Shown: one piece after another, positions 50,238-56,599 of the stretch | Layout of the letters: each line of letters starts with the position of its first letter | Position numbering within the stretch: the first letter of the stretch is position 1 | Assembly (NCBI GenBank): GCA_964394645.1 | Contig: CAYMYC010000003.1 | Span: forward strand, 18,315 to 82,314 | Direction of reading: 5' to 3' | Origin: an uncultured Gammaproteobacteria bacterium | GTDB taxonomy: Bacteria; Patescibacteriota; Microgenomatia; Levybacterales; GWA1-39-11 | Length of the DNA: 64,000 nt | The notes under the pieces: generated by a model | Databases searched by the model: none | The model's input: the letters and a program-made list of their open reading frames with translations, nothing else | What the model was told of the DNA's origin: nothing | Made by a program: the position numbers and the translations under genes

Positions 50238-50475
50238 AGCAAATTATCATTGTATTCTGAGATAGAGTATTTTGTGTCGAGTTTCTAAGAAAAACCTTGA
50301 ACTATTTATACCACTTCGAGAATCTATCAACAAATACTGGGATAGAAGCAAATACGATTACGCCGCATTTACCCAAATAGTTCTGGAAGCTAATAACCAA
50401 TTTCAGTATAATGGAATATACCGATATTAAGGGCTATATCGAAAATGCGACACATGGCGCAGTTTTATAAAAACT

Positions 50476-50739
50476 ATGAGTACCATTAACTATTTTACAG
50501 GTAAAACAAAGTCAGATACACCGAGCGCACCCGCTAAAAGCAATCCTATTAAACAAATTGTCGACGTAATGAAGAAGGTAGACGTTAAGTCGCCAGACGC
50601 CGCAAAGAATGAAAAAAGTATAGTCGATAGCAAGGGTAAGCGCATAAACCTAAATGACGAAGAAGTGAGATTCGATTATTTCAAAGGTCAATTTGTGAAG
50701 AAAAACGCTGAAAATAATAAAAACCAGAATAAAAAATAA
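50476..50739 (+). CDS. Small Lys-rich hypothetical protein (87 aa), first gene of the element
   Basis: An ORF with GC-richer codon usage than the host genes. Confidence 0.4.
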   Translation: MSTINYFTGKTKSDTPSAPAKSNPIKQIVDVMKKVDVKSPDAAKNEKSIVDSKGKRINLNDEEVRFDYFKGQFVKKNAENNKNQNKK

Positions 50740-50765
50740 CTGGCATATTATTAAGTCAGTCTATC

Positions 50766-51386
50766 TTGAACTATATGTATGCTGTTACCGATAACGAATT
50801 TACAGAAAAACATGCAACCGACGCTATTTACACAAAAGTAATCCGTGAGCTTCGAACTAACCCCAACGGCGCACAAAAACAGGATAGCGGTAGAAAAAGG
50901 GAACTAACCCGCGAAATACTACGCACCTATTTGTTCTATCTTTCCATGACTGGTGAGTATGAATTTTCGGCTGAAAATGCAGGTTTACCAGAAAAACGAA
51001 GACAAAAATACATGAAGGAATCCGAAACATTTCGCGGGGTGTCTAGCCTGGCAAAAAATAATGTTTCTTTACGCGCTAGAATGTCCGTAGCGCAGTCGAT
51101 AATGGGTAGGAAGCCTAGTTACTACAAAATGACTAACCCAGCCACTAATCAACCTGTATATATCGAATTAAAAGAAATCCTACCGAACGTAAACGCCGCT
51201 ATGTGGTGGCTGGAAAAAGTCGACAAAATCGGTACGGGTGAAGAAGACGAAGACCCATACAAAAACCCAGGATTAGGCGCACCCAGAAACGCAGAAGAAG
51301 CGGCTTTACTAGAAGGCCTACTAAATAAACATTACGATTATGTTAAGGAAAAAGAATTAAAAGCTAAACAGGCACAGCAAATCTAA
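50766..51386 (+). CDS. Hypothetical protein (206 aa) of the element
   Basis: An ORF with no motif recognised. Confidence 0.5.
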   Translation: MNYMYAVTDNEFTEKHATDAIYTKVIRELRTNPNGAQKQDSGRKRELTREILRTYLFYLSMTGEYEFSAENAGLPEKRRQKYMKESETFRGVSSLAKNNVSLRARMSVAQSIMGRKPSYYKMTNPATNQPVYIELKEILPNVNAAMWWLEKVDKIGTGEEDEDPYKNPGLGAPRNAEEAALLEGLLNKHYDYVKEKELKAKQAQQI

Positions 51387-51387
51387 T

Positions 51388-51828
51388 TTGCACCGTACCA
51401 TGAATATCGACAATTCCGACACTATAAAAAGGCATAAAGGCGATACCAAACGCCCGCTACTTAAAAAACGGTTCTTAGAGCTATTACTAGAAGAAAAGGT
51501 GTTAGGTAATGTTTCAGTAGCCGCCAAAATTCTAGGAATAAATCGCGATACCGTTTACAACTGGCGAAAAAAAGACGTAAAGTTTTCGAAAGCGTGGGAA
51601 GCGCAGATAGAACTAGCGAATGGTGTTTTAGCCGACGAAGCGGAAAACGCCTTACTTAATGGAATTAGGGCTGGTAATCCTTCACTTATTATCTTTACAC
51701 TTAAAAACAGGCGACCTGAAAAATGGAACGACCGCTATGCGAATAGACTTAAAGAAAGTCGAACCGTAGAGCATGAAGTATCGCCAGAATTTAGACAGTT
51801 TTTACAAGGTTTGCGGACTACAAAATAA
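51388..51828 (+). CDS. Phage terminase small-subunit-like HTH protein
   Basis: GNVSVAAKILGINRDTVYNWRKKDVKFSKAWEAQIELANGVLADEAE...GNPSLIIFTLKNRRPEKWNDR matches the HTH plus C-terminal ...F.LKn..PekW.dr pattern common in phage TerS/HTH_23-type small terminase proteins. Confidence 0.5.
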   Translation: MHRTMNIDNSDTIKRHKGDTKRPLLKKRFLELLLEEKVLGNVSVAAKILGINRDTVYNWRKKDVKFSKAWEAQIELANGVLADEAENALLNGIRAGNPSLIIFTLKNRRPEKWNDRYANRLKESRTVEHEVSPEFRQFLQGLRTTK

Positions 51829-51890
51829 TATTCATTTAAGGTGCGACACCTAGCGCACTTTCTGATAAAATACAGAGTAATCATATAACT

Positions 51891-52166
51891 ATGACAAACG
51901 ATTCTGACATAATAAAAAGGCTCGAAAAAATCGAACAACGTAACAAAAAGGTCGAGTTAGATAAAGCGTGGGAAGGAAGTTACGTAAGGCGCGTTTTAAT
52001 TGTAATTTTTACTTACCTTTCTATCGGAATCTACATGTGGGCCATCGGCGTAGAGAATCCATTGCTTAATGCTGTTATTCCTTCACTTGGATTTACTTTA
52101 TCTACTCTAACGCTACCTTACTTTAAAAATTTATGGATTAAATGGAGGCAAAATTATGAAAGATAA
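51891..52166 (+). CDS. Small two-TM membrane protein (91 aa)
   Basis: An ORF with hydrophobic segments [20 protein letters not shown] and [14 protein letters not shown]. Confidence 0.35.
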
Positions 52167-52539
52167 AAAACTAACAGTTCAAATAAATAAACCTGCTAGC
52201 GAAGTTTTTGCATTCGTTATTAACCCCGAAAATACACCCAAATGGATAGATTCAATTACAGTCGAGCAAACTAACGAATGGCCCGTTAAAGTAGGAACAA
52301 TTTATAAAAACAAAGGTGCAAGTGATGTTTGGACGGAATATACCTTAACAGAGTTCAGGCCGAACGAAATGTTCGTTATGCGTAAGAACGACAAAAACTA
52401 CCATGTTAAATATACATTAACACCGACAGGCAAGGATTCTTCTGAACTGGAATATCACGAATGGGTGGAACACGGCGAACTAGAAGACCCTTTTACCCCA
52501 GAGATATTACAAAAATTAAAAAAAGTTTTAGAAAAATAG
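52156..52539 (+). CDS. SRPBCC (START/Bet v1/polyketide-cyclase-like) small protein
   Basis: A ~127-aa protein whose pattern fits the SRPBCC/AHSA1-like fold ([23 protein letters not shown]...). Confidence 0.45.
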
Positions 52540-52540
52540 C

Positions 52541-52876
52541 ATGGAAGGAAAAGTAGTAAAAATCGTAGTATTCGTTCCAAAATCCCACACTGACATTGTT
52601 CGTCAAGCTATGGGCGACGCTGGCGCGGGTAAAATCGGCAATTATAGTCATTGTTCGTATTCGGTCGACGGCATAGGAAGATACAAGCCGTTAGAAGGCG
52701 CTAATCCAACCATAGGTGAAGTCGGAAAATTTGAAGAAGTCGAAGAAGAACGGGTCGAATGTGTTTGCGAAAGAAAAGTAGCAAAAGAAGTTATAAAAGC
52801 TATAAGAAAAGTTCACCCCTATGAAGAAGTAGCTTTTGACATTTACCCATTAATTTCAGAAAAAGATTTAGACTAA
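52541..52876 (+). CDS. Small GlnB/PII-like-fold protein (CutA / Nif3-insert-like)
   Basis: A 111-aa protein. The C-terminal motif VHPYEEVAFDIYPLI resembles the HPYE(V/E)P motif of CutA and the Nif3-family PII-like insert. Confidence 0.4.
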   Translation: MEGKVVKIVVFVPKSHTDIVRQAMGDAGAGKIGNYSHCSYSVDGIGRYKPLEGANPTIGEVGKFEEVEEERVECVCERKVAKEVIKAIRKVHPYEEVAFDIYPLISEKDLD

Positions 52877-53623
52877 TTCTCTATCACTTTTCCCTAAATT
52901 ACACTCGAAACAAAGCGTTTGTAAGTTTGATAATTCACTTTTTCCACCCTTAGAGAAAGGAACTATGTGGTCTATGTGTAGTTTAGTTCCTAAATCAGTA
53001 GCGGGACTTTTTCCGCAGAAAACACATCGAAAATTATCCCTACTTAGCACTTTAAGTCGCAAACTAAGATTTATTGTTCTTGTTTTAGATAGTTCGGGTT
53101 CGATAATTTCTTTTGTGGAAAGTGATTTAATGCGAGGAAATTGAATACTTTCTTTGCTTTTATCAGATACTTCGTCGTCAACAGTTATTGTACCGCCTGA
53201 TTTATATTCGATAAATTTTAAGCATGCGTTCGTCCAGCCTTCAAAATGGCGATACAGTGTATCGTAACTAATTTTAGGTTTCATGCGTACCCATTCATTT
53301 CGTGAAGGTCTATGACCTAATGCTACCCAAATTCGTTCCATTTCGTCGAACATTTCTTTTACCGAATAGGAACTTCTTCTAGTCGTTAGCTTAAATTCTA
53401 TATTTTGCTTTTTAAAATGTTCTTCTAAATACTTCAAAGCATTTTCCCATGAACCGAATTCTCTATTTACGGTAAAGTAACTAATACTCGCAAACTTATT
53501 AAAATCGCTTTGACTAAAATCCGAGTAATTAAAATGTTTAGCAACTTTTTCAAGTTCTTCAATAATCCGCTCACGCGGAATCTTACTTATTTGCCGCCTA
53601 TTAAAATCAAATTTAAAATCCAT
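52868..53623 (-). CDS. HNH endonuclease with two N-terminal HEARO (homing-endonuclease-associated) repeats
   Basis: The C-terminal HNH motif is CVFCGKSPATDLGTKLHIDHIVPFSKGGKSELSNLQTLCFECN. The N-terminal repeats end ...FGSWENAL and ...FEGWTNAC, typical of HEARO. Confidence 0.8.
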   Translation of the reverse strand: MDFKFDFNRRQISKIPRERIIEELEKVAKHFNYSDFSQSDFNKFASISYFTVNREFGSWENALKYLEEHFKKQNIEFKLTTRRSSYSVKEMFDEMERIWVALGHRPSRNEWVRMKPKISYDTLYRHFEGWTNACLKFIEYKSGGTITVDDEVSDKSKESIQFPRIKSLSTKEIIEPELSKTRTINLSLRLKVLSRDNFRCVFCGKSPATDLGTKLHIDHIVPFSKGGKSELSNLQTLCFECNLGKSDRELV

Positions 53624-53629
53624 ACTTGC

Positions 53630-53812
53630 TTATATTTCTTTTGAATCTATAAATTTCTGTAATTCTTCCAGCTTATACCTTCTATCCTTCCGTTTTCCGA
53701 TACGTACGGCTTGCAAGCGTCCCTGATTATCCCAACGGCGTAGAGTTTCGGGGTTAATTCCCAACATTTCGGCGGCTTCACGAATCTTTAATAGCTTATG
53801 TTTAGTATTCAT
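53630..53812 (-). CDS. Excisionase/MerR-like HTH_17 DNA-binding protein
   Basis: The 60-aa sequence LLKIREAAEMLGINPETLRRWDNQGRLQAVRIGKRKDRRY is a canonical excisionase-family HTH. It sits adjacent to the recombinase on the divergent strand. Confidence 0.65.
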   Translation of the reverse strand: MNTKHKLLKIREAAEMLGINPETLRRWDNQGRLQAVRIGKRKDRRYKLEELQKFIDSKEI

Positions 53813-53845
53813 AACTTCTACTTAATTATACTATAATACGATAGT

Positions 53846-55450
53846 ATGTACGATAATGATAATCTGGTCGATATTAAGAAGCTACGCTTCGTTTTATATG
53901 CCCGTAAGTCCACAGACGACGCTAAGCGGCAAATTCGCTCTATTCCAGACCAGATAGACGAATGCCGCGACCTTGCGGCAAGGCTAGGTATAAAAATCGT
54001 CGATACCTTCCGAGAAGAAAAATCCGCCAAACGGCCAGGTATCAGACCAGTTTTCAGCCAGTTAATTGAAGACATAAAAAGTGGTAAATATGACGCTATA
54101 CTTGCCTGGAATCCTGATAGATTAGCCCGAAACATGCTGGAAGCGGGCATGTTAATAGATTTGGCCGATAACGGCATTATTAAAGATTTTAAGTTTGTAA
54201 CCCATATCTATTCGCCAGACGCTAATGGAAAAATGCTTCTAGGTATGGCTTTCGTGCTATCAAAACAATATAGCGATAAGCTCTCACAGGACGTTACGCG
54301 CGGTGTTAGGAAGAACTTAGAACAAGGCAAAACGCCAACTTATAAACACGGTTATATTCGTGATAAGCGGGGCATATATCAGCCAGACGAAGAAAACGAC
54401 AGATTTGCCTTAATACAAAGTGCCTGGTACATGCGAGCCGACGGGAAGTCGCTAAAAGAAATCAACGCCTATTTGAACCTTAAAGGGTATTTCCGACTTA
54501 TCAAAGAAACGAATCGGAAACAGTACATGACCCAACAAAAACTTAGCAATATCTTTAAGGATTCGTTTTACTACGGTGCGCTGGTACAAGCGGGACAAAC
54601 GGTTTATTTACCAGACGTGTACGACTTCGAAGCCATGATAGACCGAGATATGTACGACAAAGTACAAAGTCTAAGTGTTGATAGGTTCGTTCCCTATAAA
54701 AGCAAATTACAAACATTTTACCCACTTAAACAAATGGTGAAATGCGCCTACTGCCAGGGAAATATGGTCGTAGCCCCTTCTAAAAGTGAAAGCGAAGGGC
54801 GTTTCTTATATTTTAGGTGTGATAACAAAGTATGTATTCGAAATTCGGCTGAAAATCGAGCAAAAAAGTGGAAAAAAGACCCGACATATATTAAGGCTTC
54901 GGTTCGGTCGATAGTTATATTCGATTTTGTCTATGAGCTATTAAAAGACGGACTTAACTTCACTGAAAAAGAATATTTGGAATATAAAGATAGTTTGAAA
55001 AGTTTGGGCGACGACGAACGGGAAAAGGTTCGTAGTGAAATAGAACACTTAGAAGCCTTAAAGCGTGGTTATACAAAGGAAGTGAAACGCATAGGACTAG
55101 CATTAGGAAAACTCACGGACAATAAGACAGCTTATGACATAAACGTAGAGGAACTGGGAAAGCAAAAAGCTAATCAAAGCCAAACAGAGGCCGCTATTAT
55201 AAAACTTAGAGAAAATCTTACTGACGAAGAAGAAGACGAATTGTCATTAGAAGAATTCTTGAACTTGTCAAAAAATGCCGCTATGACGGTCAAAGCGGGC
55301 GACGCGATAGCCAAAGATATGATTTGTCGGTTATTATTCTTGAACTTCCATGTAGAGAATGAAAAAGTGGCGTCATATCGGCTAAAAGAACCATTTGACA
55401 CCCTGCTTAAAAGCCGTTCTATCCAAAATAGTCGGGGATGGCAGATTTGA
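53846..55450 (+). CDS. Large serine recombinase (phage-integrase-type resolvase/recombinase)
   Basis: The resolvase N-terminal catalytic domain is VLYARKSTDD...IRSIPDQ with a nucleophile Ser, and AILAWNPDRLARN. A recombinase domain and a zinc ribbon (CAYCQGNMV...FRCDNKVC) follow, then a coiled-coil C-terminus. Length 534 aa. The last 19 nt overlap tRNA-Pro. Confidence 0.9.
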   Translation: MYDNDNLVDIKKLRFVLYARKSTDDAKRQIRSIPDQIDECRDLAARLGIKIVDTFREEKSAKRPGIRPVFSQLIEDIKSGKYDAILAWNPDRLARNMLEAGMLIDLADNGIIKDFKFVTHIYSPDANGKMLLGMAFVLSKQYSDKLSQDVTRGVRKNLEQGKTPTYKHGYIRDKRGIYQPDEENDRFALIQSAWYMRADGKSLKEINAYLNLKGYFRLIKETNRKQYMTQQKLSNIFKDSFYYGALVQAGQTVYLPDVYDFEAMIDRDMYDKVQSLSVDRFVPYKSKLQTFYPLKQMVKCAYCQGNMVVAPSKSESEGRFLYFRCDNKVCIRNSAENRAKKWKKDPTYIKASVRSIVIFDFVYELLKDGLNFTEKEYLEYKDSLKSLGDDEREKVRSEIEHLEALKRGYTKEVKRIGLALGKLTDNKTAYDINVEELGKQKANQSQTEAAIIKLRENLTDEEEDELSLEEFLNLSKNAAMTVKAGDAIAKDMICRLLFLNFHVENEKVASYRLKEPFDTLLKSRSIQNSRGWQI

Positions 55451-55503
55451 ACTGCCGACCTCACGGTCCCGAACCGTGCGCGCTACCACTGCGCCAATCC
55501 CCG
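55432..55503 (-). tRNA. tRNA-Pro (anticodon CGG)
   Basis: The reverse complement folds as CGGGGAT-TG-GCGC-AGTGGTA-GCGC-G-CACGG-TTCGGGA-CCGTG-AGGTC-GGCAG-TTCAAAT-CTGCC-ATCCCCG-A. It is nearly identical in architecture to E. coli proK. Confidence 0.85.
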
Positions 55504-55603
55504 ATAAAGTAGTTTTAGTTGGTTTCTGCTTCTTAATTTCCAAATTATACTCTAATAATGGTAGAATACGAAGAGATTAAGATCATTTTCATGGTTATAT
55601 TTG

Positions 55604-55624
55604 ACTCCGTAGCTCAATGGATGA
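55604..55624 (+). pseudogene. 5' tRNA-Arg-like fragment (acceptor 5' strand plus D-arm 5' half; copy A)
   Basis: gactccgtagctcaatggat resembles the first 20 nt of the intact tRNA at 55657 (gacctcgtagctcaatggat), with 2 differences in the acceptor strand. Confidence 0.45.
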
Positions 55625-55656
55625 AGGTTTACAAGGCAAACCTTGAGACTTGTGCG

Positions 55657-55729
55657 ACCTCGTAGCTCAATGGATTGAGCAGTCCCGTCCTAAGGGAAAG
55701 ATTGCGAGTTCGACTCTCGCCGAGGTCGC
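55657..55729 (+). tRNA. tRNA-Arg-like (anticodon CCU), embedded in an extended 17-bp inverted repeat
   Basis: GACCTCG-TA-GCTC-AATGGATT-GAGC-A-GTCCC-GTCCTAA-GGGAA-AGATT-GCGAG-TTCGACT-CTCGC-CGAGGTC-G. The acceptor, D and T stems are perfect. The D-loop AATGGAT is as in E. coli tRNA-Arg(CCU). The anticodon stem has one G:A mismatch (27:43) and an unusual G32. The flanks AGACTTGTGC / GCACAAGTCT extend the acceptor helix to 17 bp. Confidence 0.6.
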
Positions 55730-55755
55730 ACAAGTCTAGGATCAGCCCGTCCTGC

Positions 55756-55776
55756 TTTTTTGCTTTGCAAAAAAGT
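55756..55776. other. AT-rich perfect hairpin (9-bp stem, 3-nt loop) between the intact tRNA-Arg and the 3' tRNA fragment
   Basis: cttttttgc-ttt-gcaaaaaag. Confidence 0.4.
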
Positions 55777-55781
55777 GATTG

Positions 55782-55816
55782 GGAAAGATTGCGAGTTCGA
55801 CTCTCGCCGGGGTCGC
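55782..55816 (+). pseudogene. 3' tRNA-Arg-like fragment (anticodon-stem 3' strand through discriminator; copy C)
   Basis: gggaaagattgcgagttcgactctcgccggggtcg matches the 3' 35 nt of the intact tRNA except for one base in the acceptor (cgAggtc versus cgGggtc). Its acceptor strand is complementary, with one G:U, to fragment A (GACTCCG) and not to the intact copy. Confidence 0.5.
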
Positions 55817-55876
55817 AAGGAGTACCTCCATAAAAGATCATTGACTTAATGCTTGGATTTAAATATTATTATTTCC

Positions 55877-56599
55877 ATGGAGGGTAGATTGACAAAGAAA
55901 GAAAGGAAAGAGCAAAAAAGACTTGATTCTGCATATAAAATGGAAGAAAAACCAAAAAAAGCAAAATTTATCATTATTTTCTTGGTATGTGCTTTATTTC
56001 TGGCTTTTGGTGCTTTTGCAATATACACAAGCAAGATGTCTCAAAACAAAAGGGCTAGCGCATCTGTTTCATTTTTACCATCTGGTTGGGTAACGGGAAA
56101 TGCAAAATCGTCTGTTACGGTAACAGAATTTGGGGACTTTCAGTGTCCAGCATGTTTCACCTTTGAGACGACTATGCGTAAAATAAGAAGTGAATATGGT
56201 AATAAGATAAAGATTGTTTACAAACATTTTCCCCTCAAACAAGCACATCCAAATGCAATCCCCTCAGCAATTGCTGCTGAAGCTGCCGGAAAGCAAGGAA
56301 AATTTTGGGAATTCCACGATTTATTATATGACAACCAAAACGTATGGGCAGGTCTTCCCGATCCAACCACAGAGTTTATAAAATACGCAGAAAAATTAAA
56401 GTTAGACACTGATCTTTTTAAGAAAGAACTTGGAAATAGTAAACATGAGGAGGTTATCACAGCTCAGGAGGATGAGGGTATAAAAATTGGAGTGAATGCA
56501 ACGCCTACGGTGTATGTAAACGGTATGTACATGGGGGTTCCAAGCTATGAAGATTTAAAGAAAAAAATAGATGACGCGTTAGGTGCTTCTAAAAAATAG
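55877..56599 (+). CDS. Membrane-anchored thioredoxin-fold thiol:disulfide oxidoreductase (DsbA/BdbD-like)
   Basis: An N-terminal TM helix is followed by the active site FGDFQCPACFTFE (CPAC) in a DsbA-like fold. I chose the ATG at 55877; the TTG at 55853 is an alternative. Confidence 0.7.
   Translation: MEGRLTKKERKEQKRLDSAYKMEEKPKKAKFIIIFLVCALFLAFGAFAIYTSKMSQNKRASASVSFLPSGWVTGNAKSSVTVTEFGDFQCPACFTFETTMRKIRSEYGNKIKIVYKHFPLKQAHPNAIPSAIAAEAAGKQGKFWEFHDLLYDNQNVWAGLPDPTTEFIKYAEKLKLDTDLFKKELGNSKHEEVITAQEDEGIKIGVNATPTVYVNGMYMGVPSYEDLKKKIDDALGASKK

Follow-up and report, generated by a model that had tools for sequence, protein, structure and literature searches.

How does an intact transfer RNA (tRNA) gene come to lie inside the broken remains of another gene for the same tRNA? 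The locus that raises this question is situated in a stretch of 64,000 nucleotides (nt) of contig CAYMYC010000003.1 (assembly GCA_964394645.1, positions 18,315 to 82,314), here called the window, from a genome of the Levyibacteriota (Patescibacteria, the candidate phyla radiation or CPR). The assignment to Candidatus Levyibacteriota comes from a pattern scan across genomes that represent species and from homologues of the neighbouring gene of the DsbA family. A preliminary description, made from the letters alone, had noticed a tRNA-Arg(CCU)-like gene within an inverted repeat, bracketed by two tRNA fragments, and all the elements that it described are present, their start coordinates being one base too high. 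In this study I compare the window locus (W) with related loci and contigs (L-numbers); coordinates are those of the window unless another contig is named. I consider it rather probable that a gene-less, horizontally spreading tRNA replacement cassette has settled in the resident tRNA-Arg(CCU) gene, and that the inner gene works while the outer pieces are relics. The cassette would measure approximately 158 nt (55623-55780) and consist of a small hairpin, followed by the tRNA between a leader and a trailer, complementary arms of 10 nt each, then by a degenerate repeat of tRNA positions 22-36 and finally by an AT-rich hairpin, and it would have left the resident gene as a 20-nt 5' stub (relic A) and a 37-nt 3' stub (relic C). 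The features of the locus are as follows.

55562..55567, plus strand: probable -10 box TAGAAT of the promoter of the resident tRNA-Arg (motif shared with relatives, consensus scan)
55603..55622, plus strand: relic A, positions 1-20 of the resident (outer) tRNA-Arg(CCU) (match to the plain gene of L001, repeat finder)
55623..55645, plus strand: left part of the cassette with a 7-bp hairpin, AAGGTTT / AAACCTT, at 55624-55630 / 55638-55644 (read from the sequence, also in the predicted fold)
55646..55655, plus strand: leader arm AGACTTGTGC of the helix that extends the inner acceptor stem by 10 bp (inverted repeat, covariation)
55656..55728, plus strand: inner intact tRNA-Arg(CCU) gene, acceptor GACCTCG/CGAGGTC (ARAGORN, Rfam RF00005)
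55728..55737, plus strand: trailer arm GCACAAGTCT of the extension helix, its first base being the discriminator G73 (inverted repeat, covariation)
55740..55753, plus strand: relic M, GATCAGCCCGTCCT, degenerate tRNA positions 22-36 with the anticodon CCT retained and one stem base missing (local alignment, shuffles)
55754..55780, plus strand: AT-rich hairpin insert immediately 3' of anticodon position 36, arms CTTTTTTGC / GCAAAAAAG (inverted repeat)
55781..55817, plus strand: relic C, resident positions 39-75 plus a GCA trailer (direct repeat, match to L001)

A single intact tRNA-Arg(CCT) is called at the locus by ARAGORN and Rfam (55656-55728/9). It matches the Rfam tRNA model RF00005 with 56.1 bits (E 2e-9, gathering score 29) and its anticodon CCT is readable, which places it within the tRNA family. 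The covariance models that the preliminary description had proposed as a check, run over 55350-55950, likewise return this one tRNA and no transfer-messenger RNA (tmRNA) or intron; taken singly, A and C give no score, which is what fragments should do, and A, M and C joined do not make an intact cloverleaf. Relic A is identical to the inner gene at 18 of 20 positions and relic C at 36 of 37 (repeat finder), and for relic A two matches were obtained in 0 of 100 shuffles. Both fragments had been recognised beforehand, but the outer sequence had been taken for just two ends, and a third piece was overlooked. This piece, relic M, came to light when the inner gene was aligned locally to the sequence on either side of it; the piece agrees with tRNA positions 22-36 at 13 of 15 sites with one gap (29 of 2000 shuffles score equally). 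Together, A, M and C tile positions 1-20, 22-36 and 39-75 of one gene, collinearly and with zero overlap. Two inserts split this outer gene, one of 117 nt in the D-loop, which holds the intact gene, and one of 27 nt right after the anticodon. A perfect 17-nt inverted repeat (55646-55662 / 55721-55737) encloses the inner tRNA, and the AT hairpin has 9 bp (55755-55763 / 55767-55775; both by repeat finder); according to shuffle controls, the repeats and helices at the locus are not expected by chance. The outer acceptor GACUCCG/CGGGGUC pairs internally, A with C, with one G:U, and the inner acceptor GACCUCG/CGAGGUC pairs internally too. At the 5:68 pair the outer gene has C-G and the inner gene U-A, a compensated difference.

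Which of the two genes was there first is decided by the relatives. L001 (metagenome-assembled genome, DAIQMY010000003.1) shares the layout of the window: a minus-strand tRNA-Pro is followed by a homologous spacer, in which the -10 box is the same, then by tRNA-Arg and by the conserved promoter and gene of dsbA. The tRNA-Arg of L001 is one plain gene, whose sequence equals A, positions 21-38 and C of the window: relic A corresponds exactly to its positions 1-20 and relic C is identical at 37 of 37 positions (57/57 for both). The outer gene is intact in L024 and L026 too, with the same promoter, tRNA-Pro and dsbA flanks, and the window sequence 3' of relic C is native flank, homologous to that of L001 and L024. 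Since these relatives have the outer gene unbroken at the syntenic site, the outer gene is the one resident in the chromosome, and what was inserted is the inner gene together with its flanks. This alignment bears out the earlier suggestion of a second tRNA-Arg gene, of which A and C form the ends and the middle is occupied, and of the four explanations then offered, the disruption of a tRNA by a small tRNA-carrying unit fits best.

A plain tRNA-Arg in relatives had been proposed as the sign of an assembly artefact. That rule fails here, since plain relatives exist and yet the nested locus recurs in independent assemblies. It is identical in L014, L015 and L018, which belong to the window's species and come from independent samples and whose contigs encode an identical DsbA protein, and homologues were found in NCBI, ENA, JGI and Logan records; an artefact is ruled out by these three identical assemblies and by the homologues across databases. 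Within one species, the nested and the plain form coexist: the DsbA protein of L025 is the one encoded on L024, L026 and L001, which have the plain gene, and L025 is 99.19% identical to them over 3818 nt, yet it is nested. It has the inner 3' half with A68, the same trailer and the same M, a slightly different hairpin, and a C relic with two private changes. As this nested contig is nearly identical to plain ones, gain or loss of the insert within this species is recent.

Many short-read contigs, several of them in Logan, break at inner position 20/21, a likely cause being the 41-nt tRNA core common to co-occurring Levyibacteriota species. L020 (Logan SRR31968553, 900-1060) combines a window-type 3' half (CGAGGTC) with a 5' acceptor strand that belongs to another species (GTCCCCG), so that the stem is mismatched. 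I considered this contig as a between-species recombinant; more probably, the shared 41-nt core gave rise to a de Bruijn-graph chimera.

Next to the locus, at the 3' end of tRNA-Pro(CGG) (55431-55503, minus strand), lies an island of 5.15 kb (approximately 50280-55430). It contains small open reading frames, genes for an HNH-domain protein (52868-53623, minus) and a MerR/HTH_17-type protein (53630-53812, minus), and a large serine recombinase of 534 amino acids (53846-55450, plus), the 3' end of which overlaps tRNA-Pro. L014, of the same species, lacks this island precisely, the junction overlap being 3-4 nt, TCG(G). As L014 has the nested locus without the island, with flanks 100% and 99.5% identical to the window, the idea that the nesting is a by-product of the neighbouring island is rejected, and the local hotspot that the preliminary description saw here is coincidental as far as this locus is concerned.

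Four further lineages have homologous composite loci. L011 (metagenome contig VFSW01039914.1) shows A' and a hairpin, then the inner tRNA between a leader and a trailer of 10 nt each, and then M', an AT hairpin and C', its relic parts being more decayed than those of the window. Its left hairpin has a different sequence (CTGCC/GGCAG) in the same place, and the whole unit including the promoter is inverted relative to dsbA and tRNA-Pro. Its left insert matches tRNA positions 21-35 at 13/16 (manual alignment), a relic for which W and L052 give no support. Four assemblies (L052-L055) repeat the layout of the window and L011 with a leader-trailer helix of 8 bp, and in L058 the intact tRNA is followed by trailer, M, a hairpin remnant and C, the 5' relic being absent. 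L059 and L060 show a second topology: A*, a hairpin at 20/21, positions 21-36, the inner tRNA and positions 38-75. The inner tRNA of L059 lies between the two arms of a hairpin homologous to the empty AT hairpin of the window, with outer positions 1-36 before it and 38-75 after it. M pieces homologous to that of the window, with shared defects, are found in L025, L052 and L011, and the AT hairpin insert is conserved in the same three. Thirteen other lineages, sampled via DsbA or the tRNA core, have plain genes, and in the DsbA tree the composite loci fall into at least four separate clades, interleaved with plain ones.

The surroundings of the gene are variable as well. The unit of promoter and tRNA-Arg is repeatedly inverted relative to tRNA-Pro and dsbA (L011, L029-L032, L058, L059 and L061 versus window, L001 and L052); depending on the lineage, Arg and Pro are either divergent or in tandem, and L031 and L061 have both genes flipped, which marks an inversion hotspot. 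The right-hand limit of the variable tRNA-Arg region is the promoter-like site of dsbA (TTGACT-17-TATTAT, 55841-55869), which is conserved across many related lineages; its core is ATCATTGACTT in the window clade and L011 and is weaker elsewhere.

Does the inner gene belong to the genomes in which it is found? The inner tRNAs of L011 and L058 are identical at 75 of 75 positions to the plain gene of the window clade (L001), whereas in their own clade the plain genes differ from it in the T-stems and in the acceptor, which is GUCCCCG/CGGGGAC; the neighbouring tRNA-Pro of L011 and L058 is of the host-clade type. Identity with the window clade, while the genes of their own relatives clearly differ, indicates that L011 and L058 acquired the inner tRNA-Arg horizontally. 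In L052 the inner T-stem is of window type (GCGAG/CUCGC) and the T-arm of relic C is of the local resident type, found also in the sister lineage L059 and similar to that of L032. To the right of the tRNA, the non-coding part of the cassette (trailer, M and hairpin) is identical at 50/50 positions between W and L025 and at 49/51 between W and L052, while the adjoining flank matches at 47/56 in L025 and is essentially unalignable in L052. These data fit a cassette, or a whole composite module, that travels from one genome to another and enters the same gene each time.

The tRNA-Pro of L052 (1064-1136, minus) looks mosaic, with acceptor and T-arm of the window-clade type and an anticodon stem as in L059, possibly from recombination between lineages within tRNA genes.

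A further part of the composite is the helix formed by leader and trailer, a clamp that extends the inner acceptor stem. In an alignment of leader, tRNA and trailer of W, L011 and L052, 5 of the 10 pairs of the extension are changed on both sides, and 98% of the cells of the 17-bp helix are paired, against 30-44% when the partners are slid; the observed covariation score was reached in 0 of 500 shuffles. Plain genes show no such complementarity between leader and trailer. The minimum free energy folds of the W and L011 modules both close the inner cloverleaf with the clamp (z-scores -6.1 and -4.6). A duplex with compensatory changes is seen in W, L011 and L052; a processing stem of the ribonuclease (RNase) III type would in addition be cleaved by that enzyme. 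I infer that the clamp is selected at the RNA level. The inner 5' acceptor strand could pair with the strand of relic C with only one G:U, and the clamp may keep the inner 5' and 3' ends together and prevent pairing with the near-identical decoy halves; as a duplex it may also be a target of endonucleolytic release, perhaps by RNase III, with RNase P and the trimming of the 3' end acting afterwards. The helix could have originated in fold-back priming by way of the acceptor stem, which gives a leader that is the reverse complement of the trailer; at the DNA level, such priming or the correction of quasi-palindromes at the acceptor-stem repeat is a possible explanation of the clamp and would account for its origin as well.

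The composite would be transcribed from the resident promoter. A (G)GTAKAAT motif precedes the tRNA-Arg in L001, L011, L032, L058, L059 and L061, and the consensus scan found no further promoter-like site between the -10 box and the inner tRNA of the window; TAGAAT probably drives the whole composite transcript. I also considered the AT hairpin as an intrinsic terminator, which is not supported, as the terminator scan predicts none at the hairpin or elsewhere at the locus.

As to how the cassette would move between genomes into the same gene, two routes seem likely, namely the uptake of DNA followed by recombination through the tRNA sequence, which is highly conserved, and the action of a site-specific recombinase in trans. 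The nested form could revert to the plain gene by deletion between the 20-nt and the 37-nt direct repeats, and such collapse probably adds to the patchiness of its distribution.

Several observations weigh against a mobile cassette of this kind. M and hairpin are approximately 96% identical between W and L052 and the clamp arms only 50-60%, which a simple recent transfer does not explain, and the right-hand junction of L052 offers only about 12 nt of identity, short for recombination of the RecA type. No recombinase is associated with the cassette, so that its mobility follows from distribution and sequence type only, and no free, extrachromosomal or relocated copy was found in four scans of viral contigs, in the collections of phages and plasmids, or in a single scan each of genomes and metagenomes. 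The coaxial clamp is present in just three sequences and the counts are small, and its complementarity could be kept by correction of (quasi-)palindromes at the DNA level instead of by selection on the RNA. Finally, an old composite that is inherited vertically and has repeatedly collapsed to the plain gene would also give a patchy distribution. However, vertical inheritance with collapse fails to explain the foreign sequence type of the inner gene.

The 19 matches in one scan of viral contigs are due to chance and contain no tRNA, the other three scans of viral contigs were empty, the phage collection gave ordinary tRNA similarity only and the plasmid collection nothing, so that these collections hold no evidence of a phage or plasmid origin. 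No second copy of any part of the cassette occurs in the 64-kb window or in 40 related loci, and beyond a 4-nt GGAT repeat there is no convincing target-site duplication, contrary to what is expected of miniature inverted-repeat transposable elements or elements resembling repetitive extragenic palindromes. Excision of the IS200/IS605 kind was rejected, as taking out the insert or inserts fails to recreate the plain gene. Fragments of tRNA-Pro, Tyr, Thr or Trp were not found within the window, and apart from the tRNA itself and a 17-nt match to its T-arm, no Rfam family (tmRNA, introns or other) was detected.

A wider version of the replacement cassette is possible, but I put it forward tentatively. 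The window locus may represent an unrecognised class of minimal selfish DNA of about 160 nt, without genes, a tRNA in a tRNA, which would spread in the Patescibacteria by swapping the resident tRNA-Arg for a clamp-flanked copy, with the conserved tRNA as target or as homology arms. Successive rounds would stack up relic halves and empty clamp hairpins, and what now follows position 36 as a hairpin would once have clamped an earlier occupant, as the layout of L059 suggests. In a still bolder variant, the copies may arise from a self-primed, folded-back single-stranded tRNA intermediate, either DNA or complementary DNA. Such an intermediate would explain both the perfect leader-trailer repeat and the insertion at loop positions.

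Alternatively, the relics may be attachment-site scars, left by one or more integrase-driven elements that entered tRNA-Arg, each with a replacement part of the tRNA, and later lost their bodies, with a miniature att-flanked remnant that is perhaps still moved in trans. I regard this main rival as unlikely, although it overlaps with the replacement cassette and differs mainly in how the cassette moves. The elements that target tRNA genes reportedly restore the gene, duplicate its 3' part in attL and attR and leave miniature, cis-mobilizable remnants flanked by att sites. The window locus resembles them in several respects: foreign DNA enters a tRNA gene and supplies what keeps the tRNA working, the distribution is patchy with presence/absence polymorphism within a species, and the 3' part is directly repeated. 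That repeat (inner positions 39-75 and relic C, 37 nt, 97% identity) flanks just 51 nt, the classic attL/attR layout, and its boundary lies in the anticodon loop, which is said to be the commonest site of integrase crossover in tRNA genes. L058, with its intact tRNA, short spacer and 3' relic, retains just the part that looks like attR, the shortness of the identity at the junction of L052 speaks for site-specific rather than homologous recombination, and the neighbourhood does acquire integrase islands. However, the adjacent serine-recombinase island is independent of the locus, and between the repeats there are merely 51 nt and, for the 20-nt repeat (90% identity), 33 nt, with no integrase or element gene in any of six lineages. 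The integrating elements that are known carry the 3' part of a tRNA. The window cassette brings a complete tRNA in about 158 nt, and its inner gene is no chimera of a resident 5' and an element 3' part, as the inner acceptor strands co-vary together and so do A and C. Nor does the known pattern include a 5' stub ending in the D-loop, an inner gene inside a conserved 10-bp leader-trailer helix, or relic pieces on either side of the inner gene that tile one gene in two topologies. The attachment-site remnants of the preliminary description are in this sense a partial rival, apt for relic C and for L058 and at odds with the complete, integrase-free inner gene.

A decayed tandem array of three head-to-tail tRNA-Arg copies, of which the first (A) and the third (M and C) have decayed around an intact middle one, seems to me quite improbable. 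All pieces do lie on the same strand and in order, the left insert of the window weakly resembles tRNA positions 37-55 (14/19), and partial 5' duplications occur nearby: in L059 a 19-nt 5' relic of tRNA-Pro, CGGGGTATGGTGCATCGAT (approximately 1180-1162, minus), lies 37 nt upstream of the intact tRNA-Pro, so that a partial duplication ending in the D-loop is not limited to tRNA-Arg. But the pieces of the window end at position 20 and resume at 22, and those of L059 cover 1-36 and 38-75; such exact tiling in both topologies is expected of nesting and not of copies that decayed independently. Moreover, A and C share the resident acceptor type, from which the inner gene differs by its own internally compensated type, the inner gene is of foreign type in L052, L011 and L058, and the plain locus of L001 bears no trace of an array.

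It is barely credible that the outer gene still functions, with intron-like inserts removed from the RNA and one tRNA encoded in the intron of another, for even though both inserts sit at loop-coding positions, A and C are undecayed in the window when compared with the plain gene, and the predicted fold retains the outer acceptor stem and T-arm, the joined A, M and C lack an anticodon-stem base and A37/A38 and have a mismatched D-stem, and the relic is broken differently in L011, L058 and L059. From this unsoundness and lineage-specific damage it follows that the outer gene is a non-functional relic and not a spliced gene, and the intervening sequence of the preliminary description is left unsupported by a gene that is broken in every lineage. 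Known interrupted tRNA genes help to place the locus. Group I introns are found in bacterial tRNA genes, including tRNA-Arg(CCU) at 36/37, a classic site for them that is reported for bacteria including Patescibacteria, in which introns are frequent (PMC13011429), and the AT hairpin of the window is likewise inserted exactly after position 36 of tRNA-Arg(CCU) in a patescibacterium. Unlike these introns, it is 27 nt long and interrupts a non-functional host sequence; no group I or group II intron was matched at E up to 10 in 55350-55950, and inserts of 27 and 117 nt are far too small for self-splicing. At most, the hairpin could be an intron remnant. In Archaea and red algae, multiple-intron, split and permuted tRNAs are reported to be processed at bulge-helix-bulge motifs (PMC4090602, PMC3978253). 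Their D-loop and anticodon-loop interruptions by short hairpin inserts and their collinear, tiling pieces recall the window locus. However, those interrupted genes are functional and are mended in the RNA by a splicing endonuclease and a ligase, whereas here a relic decays in a bacterial genome (with a class II tRNA-Tyr of 86 nt) and the working tRNA would lie inside the insert. The junctions of the window form no bulge-helix-bulge in the predicted fold, which shows a 10-bp terminal hairpin flanked by single strands of 5 and 4 nt.

For the clamp, the nearest comparison is found in ribosomal RNA (rRNA). The processing stems of rRNA operons close a structured RNA by a long leader-trailer helix, and the intervening sequences of 23S rRNA, which RNase III excises, are sporadic, strain-variable stem-loop inserts in terminal loops. 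The locus shares this closing of a structured RNA gene, but here it is a tRNA gene, the helix has only 17 bp (approximately 22 bp if stacked on the T-stem), and the role of RNase III is putative. Full-text searches of the literature did not bring up any tRNA gene described as nested in its predecessor's relic, nor any clamp-flanked tRNA cassette, and I know of none either.

The principle itself, that mobile DNA hits a tRNA gene and brings a replacement, is a known one; the form is new, with a complete tRNA, no genes, nesting in a loop and a conserved clamp. The tRNA genes are classic landing sites of mobile DNA, and as a rule it is the 3' part of the gene that an arriving element restores. In the present case, what arrives is hardly more than a whole tRNA as a substitute, fitted with a structural clamp and placed inside the old gene. 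Annotation shows one ordinary tRNA at such a locus, and short-read assemblies break or turn chimeric there. If the replacement cassette is real, a tRNA fragment beside a tRNA gene should not be taken for the scar of a prophage as a matter of course. The clamp, for its part, provides a testable case of a bacterium that extracts a tRNA from a transcript containing near-identical decoy halves. A moving cassette would also mean that the essential tRNA genes of the reduced CPR genomes are swapped between species, in line with the tRNA-Arg allele of L011 and L058, which departs from the phylogeny of the host, and it would constitute a simple route of tRNA allele replacement for which no element-encoded enzymes are required.

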